A DNA stretch of 64,000 nucleotides from Escherichia coli (GTDB lineage: Bacteria > Pseudomonadota > Gammaproteobacteria > Enterobacterales > Enterobacteriaceae), in the NCBI RefSeq assembly GCF_003334385.1, contig NZ_QOWN01000004.1; one strand, written 5' to 3'. The stretch's first letter is position 1, and each line of letters opens with the position of its first letter. The notes beneath the pieces are model-generated. The model saw only the letters and a program-made list of their open reading frames with translations. It had not been told where the DNA came from and did no database searches. The position numbers were made by a program, and so were the translations under genes. Below, in pieces: positions 19,925-20,326 of this stretch.

Positions 19925-20326
19925 ATGACATGGAATCCGTTGGCGCTAGCGACGGCGCTGCAAACTGTACCTGAACAAAATATTGATGTAACAAATAGCG
20001 AGAACGCATTAATTATTAAAATGAATGATTATGGCGATTTGCAAATCAATATTCTTTTTACTTCCCGCCAAATGATTATCGAAACCTTTATTTGTCCGGT
20101 GAGTAGTATCAGCAATCCAGATGAATTTAATACCTTCTTATTAAGAAATCAGAAGATGATGCCGTTGTCATCGGTAGGGATCTCCAGCGTACAACAGGAA
20201 GAGTATTACATTGTTTTCGGGGCGTTATCGCTTAAATCTTCTCTTGAAGATATCCTGCTTGAGATAACCTCGCTGGTAGATAACGCATTGGATCTGGCTG
20301 AAATTACAGAAGAATATTCACACTAA
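19925..20326 (+). CDS. yjfI: uncharacterised protein YjfI (DUF2170)
   Basis: ORF track; 133 aa; AT-rich gene. Confidence 0.8.
   Translation: MTWNPLALATALQTVPEQNIDVTNSENALIIKMNDYGDLQINILFTSRQMIIETFICPVSSISNPDEFNTFLLRNQKMMPLSSVGISSVQQEEYYIVFGALSLKSSLEDILLEITSLVDNALDLAEITEEYSH

Follow-up and report, generated by a model that had tools for sequence, protein, structure and literature searches.

Why is yjfI so much richer in A and T than the genes around it, and does this composition mark DNA of foreign origin, a target of the nucleoid protein H-NS, or both? The question was raised by a first-pass annotation of a 64,000-nt stretch of Escherichia coli DNA (contig NZ_QOWN01000004.1, referred to here as the window), which proposed that yjfI and its upstream sequence could be a horizontally acquired or H-NS-bound entry point of the yjfI-yjfC cluster. 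The local gene order is rnr-rlmB-yjfI-yjfJ-yjfK-yjfL-yjfM-yjfC-aidB. In the yjfI region, MG1655 coordinates equal window coordinates plus 4,390,208, with zero differences over 19000-22268, and 19000-21100 is 100% identical to several complete genomes; divergence from MG1655 appears past ~26.8 kb.

Composition of yjfI and its surroundings

The yjfI open reading frame occupies exactly 19925-20326 (+ strand, 133 aa, ATG start), and a composition count gave 38.6% GC (GC1/2/3 of 0.433/0.313/0.410), compared to 56.3% in rlmB, 51.4% in yjfJ, and 51.7% for the window as a whole. GC this low is found in only 1.9% of the 402-bp segments of the window. Among 46 reliably mapped genes (mean 51.8%, sd 4.2), yjfI ranks last in GC (z = -3.2) and second from the bottom in GC3 (z = -2.2). 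The 126-bp rlmB-yjfI spacer (19799-19924) is more extreme, with 23.8% GC, the lowest value among the 37 spacers with a length of 60 bp or more (mean 46.8%, sd 7.4). Together, yjfI and the 120 bp upstream of it (522 bp, 35.1% GC) fall in the lowest 0.06% of same-size segments, and the window-wide minimum at this size starts at 19837. The first-pass annotation had judged by eye that the gene is AT-rich relative to its neighbours and that the 120 bp upstream are dominated by A/T runs; both impressions are confirmed by the windowed calculation. The block 19799-20326 is 65% AT, an AT content typical of the targets of xenogeneic silencing by H-NS and its relative StpA, and TpA steps in it are about twice as frequent as the window average (9.5 versus 4.5 per 100 nt).

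The contrast that had been drawn with both flanking genes holds as far as rlmB and yjfJ are GC-normal; however, the operon contains a second, milder AT trough at 21499-21905 (39-42% GC; no strand assigned), which covers the 3' end of yjfK and the 5' end of yjfL. The remaining cluster genes measured have GC contents of 43.6% (yjfL), 48.8% (yjfM), and 53.4% (yjfC). Other low-GC patches of the window, at 37.0-39.6 kb and 45.4-46.2 kb, lie within or edge a region at 36400-45850 holding ~8.4 kb that is absent from MG1655. This extra DNA encodes a TRAP transporter, an acyl-CoA:acetate/3-ketoacid CoA-transferase, an FAD oxidoreductase, and a sugar-phosphate isomerase; 1448 of 5426 E. coli genomes carry it at full length.

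The yjfI product and its operon

YjfI matches the DUF2170 family (Pfam PF09938, E = 1.6e-44) over residues 2-131 and a solved DUF2170 structure (PDB 8q8o, E = 1e-16), while its match to the NCBIfam BacA family model is below the cut-off. Members of this family have a CesT/Tir-like (type III chaperone-like) fold and are conserved partners of YjfJ-class PspA/IM30 proteins (PMC10948618, PMC11237479). The full-length domain match and the PspA/IM30 gene immediately 3', yjfJ (20345-21043, + strand), place yjfI within the DUF2170/YjfI family. The gap between the two genes is 18 nt, and the pair is kept in 73 of the 74 loci (15 enteric and 59 non-enteric) found when each species was represented by one genome; that pattern scan returned no locus from Salmonella enterica, Klebsiella, or E. 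albertii. The rest of the cluster, yjfK, yjfL, yjfM, and yjfC, occupies 21094-23983 on the + strand.

Within the cluster, only YjfM diverges faster than YjfI, which has 66-70% identity to its Citrobacter counterparts versus 88-91% for YjfJ. However, the dN/dS of yjfI (0.05-0.08) is as low as that of its neighbours, which indicates that yjfI is functional and under purifying selection rather than decaying; the idea that it is a pseudogene or under relaxed constraint was rejected on these values.

Two characterized operons resemble the yjf cluster. In bacABCDEF of Pseudomonas aeruginosa, the order is the same, with a DUF2170 gene first (BacA, PA3732) and a PspA/IM30 gene second (BacB, PspA-like). 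BacA-type proteins differ in carrying an N-terminal extension (YjfI matches the 206-residue profile from position 87 onward), and the sigma-54 site proposed upstream of bacA differs from the candidate sigma-70-type extended -10 of the enteric yjfI spacer (see below). As the P. aeruginosa genome has 66% GC, an AT trough would not be expected at its bac operon. The psp operon (pspABCDE, PspF/sigma-54) likewise places a PspA-family effector in an envelope-stress-type operon, but the yjf operon lacks PspF, PspB, and PspC and has different partners: the CesT/Tir-like YjfI, YjfK, the DUF350 protein YjfL, the DUF1190 protein YjfM, and the GSP-synthetase-like YjfC. The yjf operon is, so far as known, controlled by nucleoid-protein silencing instead of a dedicated activator.

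Anatomy of the rlmB-yjfI spacer

The rlmB gene, encoding the 23S rRNA Gm2251 methyltransferase, lies at 19067-19798 on the + strand, with the same coordinates in the MG1655 annotation. It is followed by a variable junction (19799-19816, no strand assigned), identified by comparing junction sequences between the window and the genome L002, and by the rlmB intrinsic terminator (19813-19845, + strand), which was recognized from a terminator scan, RNA folding, and compensatory stem changes. The hairpin (19813-19836) has the core CCATCCA-GATT-TGGATGG and is followed directly by a run of nine T residues (T9, 19837-19845). Pairing of the upstream GAAAAG with the first U residues could extend the stem to a predicted 13 bp (19813-19842), and the RNA folds at -16.3 kcal/mol (z = -4.5). 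In an alignment of 14 enteric rlmB-yjfI spacers, both the T run and the hairpin are kept, the latter through compensatory changes (CCATCC/GGATGG, CCACCC/GGGTGG, and CCATCT/AGATGG).

Just downstream of the T run lies a candidate extended -10 element, TGgTAAGAT (19855-19863, + strand; TG at 19855-56, hexamer TAAGAT at 19858-63), which overlaps an alternative candidate, GATAAT (19861-66). The TAnnAT pattern occurs in 13 of the 14 enteric spacers and is preceded by TGn in ten, while the surrounding sequence has diverged; this conservation suggests that TGnTAnnAT is an extended -10 promoter adjoining the rlmB terminator. A generic -35/-10 scan of 19700-20450 detected no promoter of canonical form, nor were spurious intragenic promoters in excess within yjfI. 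Genomic SELEX has located an RpoD holoenzyme site in the rlmB-yjfI spacer, although the hexamer pair suggested there differs from the TGnTAnnAT candidate and overlaps the ribosome-binding site. The remainder of the spacer is an AT-rich leader (19864-19924, + strand) that appears unstructured, with 19850-19930 folding at -4.7 kcal/mol, weaker than shuffled sequences. A Shine-Dalgarno-like GGAA lies at 19915-19918, 6 nt 5' of the yjfI ATG, and TATGGAA is kept in the Escherichia and Citrobacter spacers.

Two repeats were also observed. A 15-nt inverted repeat (93% complementary) joins 19881-19895 in the yjfI leader and 20012-20026 in yjfI codons 30-34, and could either allow distant parts of the mRNA to pair or be a chance match in AT-rich DNA. 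An exact 14-nt repeat, TAATTACAAGGACG, occurs at 20324-20337 and 21751-21764, where it forms the yjfI stop/yjfJ ribosome-binding junction and the yjfK stop/yjfL junction, respectively; by a rough estimate its chance probability is ~0.06, which is borderline.

Silencing by H-NS and StpA

Published data bear directly on the suggestion that this region is bound by H-NS. The ChAP-seq study of Higashi et al. 2016 (PMC4720273), which covered K-12, SE11, and SE15, flags rlmB, yjfK, and yjfL as H-NS-bound genes in its tables S2/S3, where the gene-level TRUE/FALSE flags are pooled over the three strains, and includes the yjfI/yjfJ and yjfJ/yjfK spacers among 94 bound spacers out of 703. The rlmB/yjfI spacer is not in the list of conserved spacers of that study; length polymorphism at this position could account for its absence. 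[quoted passage not shown] These values correspond to 21-78-fold derepression of the four genes in the double mutant and 10-29-fold derepression with netropsin, while the same dataset reports no effect of delta-stpA alone on any of them. The H-NS chromosomal hairpin (CHIN) flag is positive for yjfJ, yjfL, and yjfM. Taken together, the ChAP-seq flags on three genes and two spacers and the derepression seen without H-NS and StpA support the H-NS-bound part of the first-pass proposal. Two other sources gave negative results: the rlmB/yjfI spacer is not among the 987 sites of genomic SELEX with purified H-NS, and a search of 19243-20468 for the high-affinity H-NS motif TCGATAAATT, allowing up to two mismatches, had zero matches. 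The Myers 2013 supplements have no entry for the yjf cluster genes.

We consider it likely that the AT-rich block is the 5' control region of a long-established membrane-stress operon of the PspA type, silenced by H-NS and StpA, and acts as a platform for these two proteins. The block would comprise the rlmB terminator with its T9 run, ~80 bp of promoter and leader (~20% GC), and the yjfI coding sequence. H-NS, with StpA as a backup, would assemble mainly on this block, and a filament or bridged hairpin would extend from it across the GC-normal yjfJ to the second AT patch at yjfK/yjfL, so that a weak sigma-70 promoter, and with it the entire operon, stays almost silent. In this view the yjfI block would be the nucleation site for H-NS, and the second trough is possibly the other arm of an H-NS-bridged hairpin.

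A one-base change in the terminator T run

An alternative view is that low expression results mainly from the rlmB terminator and a poor promoter, with the AT-rich DNA being ordinary control sequence and H-NS secondary. The strong terminator indeed adjoins the candidate -10, and databases list a read-through unit nsrR-rnr-rlmB-yjfI(J). In addition, yjfIJKL forms a single-operon iModulon that is inactive across PRECISE-1K (~1000 transcriptomes) except in heat-evolved strains carrying a (T)9->8 mutation. This mutation, at MG1655 4410053 (position +47/-80), accompanies strong activation of yjfIJKL in heat-evolved E. coli (PMC12492005), so that a single change in the U-tract coincides with strong up-regulation in an hns+ background. 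However, a terminator and promoter explanation covers only the 126-bp spacer and not the 402 bp of AT-rich coding sequence, and it leaves the derepression in the delta-hns delta-stpA double mutant and with netropsin unaccounted for. We therefore regard it as improbable as the main cause, and favour silencing from the AT-rich block.

The mutated site is the T9 run itself, which lies at approximately -33 to -25 of the candidate promoter. Inspection by hand found no canonical promoter created or re-spaced by the change, which may act through terminator read-through, promoter geometry, or nucleoid-protein binding or phasing. Among complete E. coli genomes, the exact T9 50-mer is present in 4768 (88%) and the exact T8 49-mer in 132, although homopolymer assembly errors are a serious caveat to the T8 counts. 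The T8 form occurs both on the K-12-type junction (at least 41 genomes) and on a junction carrying an inserted cassette (at least 9 genomes; see below). Given strong activation with T8 in laboratory evolution, its presence in at least 132 genomes, and its occurrence on both haplotypes, one may speculate that the T run is a naturally mutable one-base switch (operon off with T9, on with T8) in which slippage would give heritable escape from silencing under envelope or heat stress, but this is a long shot. Such an arrangement would recall the poly-T and poly-G tracts in the promoter spacers of Neisseria and Haemophilus, where a one-base change in a tract beside a promoter likewise alters expression strongly; here the tract is of 9 nt, and both T8 and T9 are present among E. 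coli genomes. The yjf T run differs in doubling as the U-tract of a terminator and in being T9 in 88% of genomes, and reversible switching would be an analogy with those systems.

Age and position of the cluster

The sharp local drop in GC at the left edge of the cluster, together with H-NS binding of the kind typical of foreign DNA, could also be read as the scar of horizontal acquisition, in which the cluster came from a low-GC donor and yjfI with its upstream sequence is the unameliorated entry edge. The distribution of the locus does not favour this. Each of the 5426 complete E. coli genomes contains a match to the locus, contiguous in 4834, with the rest split by insertions rather than showing absence; rare yjfIJK deletions do occur. 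The synteny rlmB-yjfIJKLMC-aidB is found in 14 enteric species loci, and the rlmB-aidB site is common to Escherichia, Citrobacter, Kosakonia, Phytobacter, Enterobacter, Atlantibacter, and, in degraded form, Salmonella arizonae. In the 59 non-enteric loci (Vibrio, Alteromonas, Marinomonas, Microbulbifer, Oceanimonas, and others), the order yjfI-yjfJ-yjfK-yjfL-(yjfM)-yjfC is kept, but outside the Enterobacteriaceae the operon lies away from rlmB. This indicates that it did arrive at the rlmB-aidB site at some time, which speaks for a scar, and that it was there before the sampled enteric genera split and the family diversified.

Hallmarks of mobility are likewise lacking: a tRNA search of 15000-27000 found none, the annotation contains no integrase, and the only flanking direct repeats are short and at chance level. 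The yjfJ, yjfL, and yjfM genes carry no horizontally-transferred-gene flag in Table S1 of PMC12460168. The cluster thus shows neither strain-variable presence, nor absence from sister genera, nor the mobility features of an island or islet, and its composition does not deviate across the whole unit, only yjfI and yjfL doing so while yjfJ, yjfK, yjfM, and yjfC have host-like GC. As a recent event, horizontal acquisition of the cluster, as first proposed, is not supported, and the cluster is better described as an old resident.

One further observation could be taken to favour a scar. Between E. coli and another Escherichia genome (L008), a 1-kb segment (19800-20800) has 72-87% identity compared to ~95% in the flanks. 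The segment begins exactly at the stop codon of rlmB and ends inside yjfJ, and the dS of yjfI is 1.96 versus 0.22-0.63 in the flanks. However, the E. coli and L008 yjfI alleles are equidistant from Citrobacter, which points to no outside donor. Import of a foreign yjfI allele was accordingly set aside as the cause of this divergence, neither donor nor direction being assignable. Overall, the scar reading is unlikely, and the preferred reading remains that of a long-resident, silenced operon.

Changes in gene content were noted elsewhere in the cluster. In S. enterica subsp. arizonae (L018, 10001-11100), fragments of yjfI, yjfJ, yjfL, and yjfC lie between rlmB and aidB, and yjfK and yjfM were not detected. 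In many relatives, a gene for a 356-aa protein of the potassium-channel family lies between yjfJ and yjfK, where the window has a spacer (21044-21093); carriers include Escherichia L008 (3070-4140), Citrobacter, Enterobacter ENT03, Atlantibacter, and most marine genera, with a further copy at 6001-7071 of L080. Only 19 of 5426 E. coli genomes contain this gene, which suggests that an ancestral member of the operon has been lost in most E. coli. The E. coli strains that have it do not carry the divergent yjfI allele.

A lineage-wide AT trough

The GC content of yjfI is ~10 points below that of its own locus in all 15 enteric loci, compared to ~2 points below in the 59 non-enteric loci. The corresponding values are ~-22 and ~-13 points for the upstream 120 bp and ~-7 and ~-0.5 points for yjfL, while yjfJ, yjfM, and yjfC stand at ~0 points in enteric loci and +0.6 to +3.4 points in non-enteric ones. 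Within the cluster, the trough is thus confined to the spacer, yjfI, and yjfL. Third positions follow the same pattern, with a yjfI GC3 of 0.45 in enteric genomes versus 0.55-0.65 in neighbouring genes, and of 0.71 versus 0.69-0.74 in GC-rich non-enteric genomes. By comparison, GC2 of yjfI is low in all lineages (0.31-0.32), a trait of the protein family, and part of the low GC of the gene is therefore protein composition. Synonymous sites are saturated (dS) between E. coli and Citrobacter and yjfI GC3 is low in both, which argues that the trough is a maintained local equilibrium rather than an unameliorated scar. Since yjfJ, yjfM, and yjfC are equally silenced and are not AT-rich, silencing alone does not create AT-richness.

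It is possible that the trough is a passive by-product, in which an AT-leaning protein composition and the silence of a fast-evolving gene allow AT-biased mutation and weak codon selection to lower GC1 and GC3, H-NS then binding as a consequence and the composition having no selected role. The low GC2 in every lineage, the rapid divergence of YjfI, its very low wild-type expression, and the faster evolution reported for H-NS-bound core genes in PMC4720273 are all compatible with this. However, the equally silent yjfJ and yjfC hold GC3 at 0.55-0.61 in enteric genomes, the dN/dS of yjfI matches that of its neighbours and so gives no sign of relaxed constraint, and GC-rich non-enteric genomes have no trough. 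The by-product view is consequently somewhat doubtful, though it deserves more weight than either the scar or the terminator explanation. On the favoured H-NS/StpA platform reading, AT-richness would be maintained because of silencing rather than merely tolerated.

The yjf operon thus resembles other H-NS/StpA-silenced loci of E. coli (bgl, proV, the hdeAB-gadE region, and the hairpins of PMC12460168) in its AT-rich DNA and H-NS binding, and in a response that is nil in delta-stpA alone, modest in delta-hns, and large in the double mutant and with netropsin. It differs from them in being a family-wide resident rather than strain-variable foreign DNA, in being AT-rich only in its first gene and yjfL, and in having neither a high-affinity H-NS motif in the block nor a SELEX match in the spacer.

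The spacer as an insertion site

In 520 of 5426 genomes (9.6%), a 5.1-kb cassette with 44% GC (L002, 6861-11990) takes the place of the 18 nt at 19799-19816, directly after the stop codon of rlmB. Its gene content is catabolic (IclR regulator, DHDPS-family enzyme, MFS transporter, and UxaA-family dehydratase), and its copies are at least 99% identical. The short spacing found in all outgroup genera indicates that the cassette is a derived insertion. In cassette-bearing genomes, the terminator, T run, and candidate promoter remain attached to yjfI. Insertion sequences use the region as well. In strain BKQWHE (L081), two copies of IS1 flank yjfI in an arrangement that resembles a composite transposon, with sites in the candidate -10 (~19861-19870) and in yjfJ codons 2-4 (20348-20355), and strain ECSD228 (L001) combines the cassette with an IS1-associated loss of yjfI, yjfJ, and yjfK. 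The term "entry point" therefore fits the spacer as a place that receives the cassette and IS1, but not as the edge by which the yjfI-yjfC cluster itself entered.

Implications

H-NS silencing of this locus was already contained in published genome-wide data, and in that respect the finding is ordinary and largely known. The locus nonetheless provides a clean negative for the assumption that low GC means foreign, as it is a core, family-wide operon with a stable, lineage-specific AT-rich first gene that probably recruits a xenogeneic silencer. Its spacer doubles as a population-level insertion hot spot. For yjfIJKLMC, which is poorly understood and silent in the laboratory, the results offer the practical pointers that it is silenced by H-NS and StpA and that its likely promoter lies beside the rlmB terminator. 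That the operon can be switched on by a one-base change in the T run or by netropsin may be of practical use.
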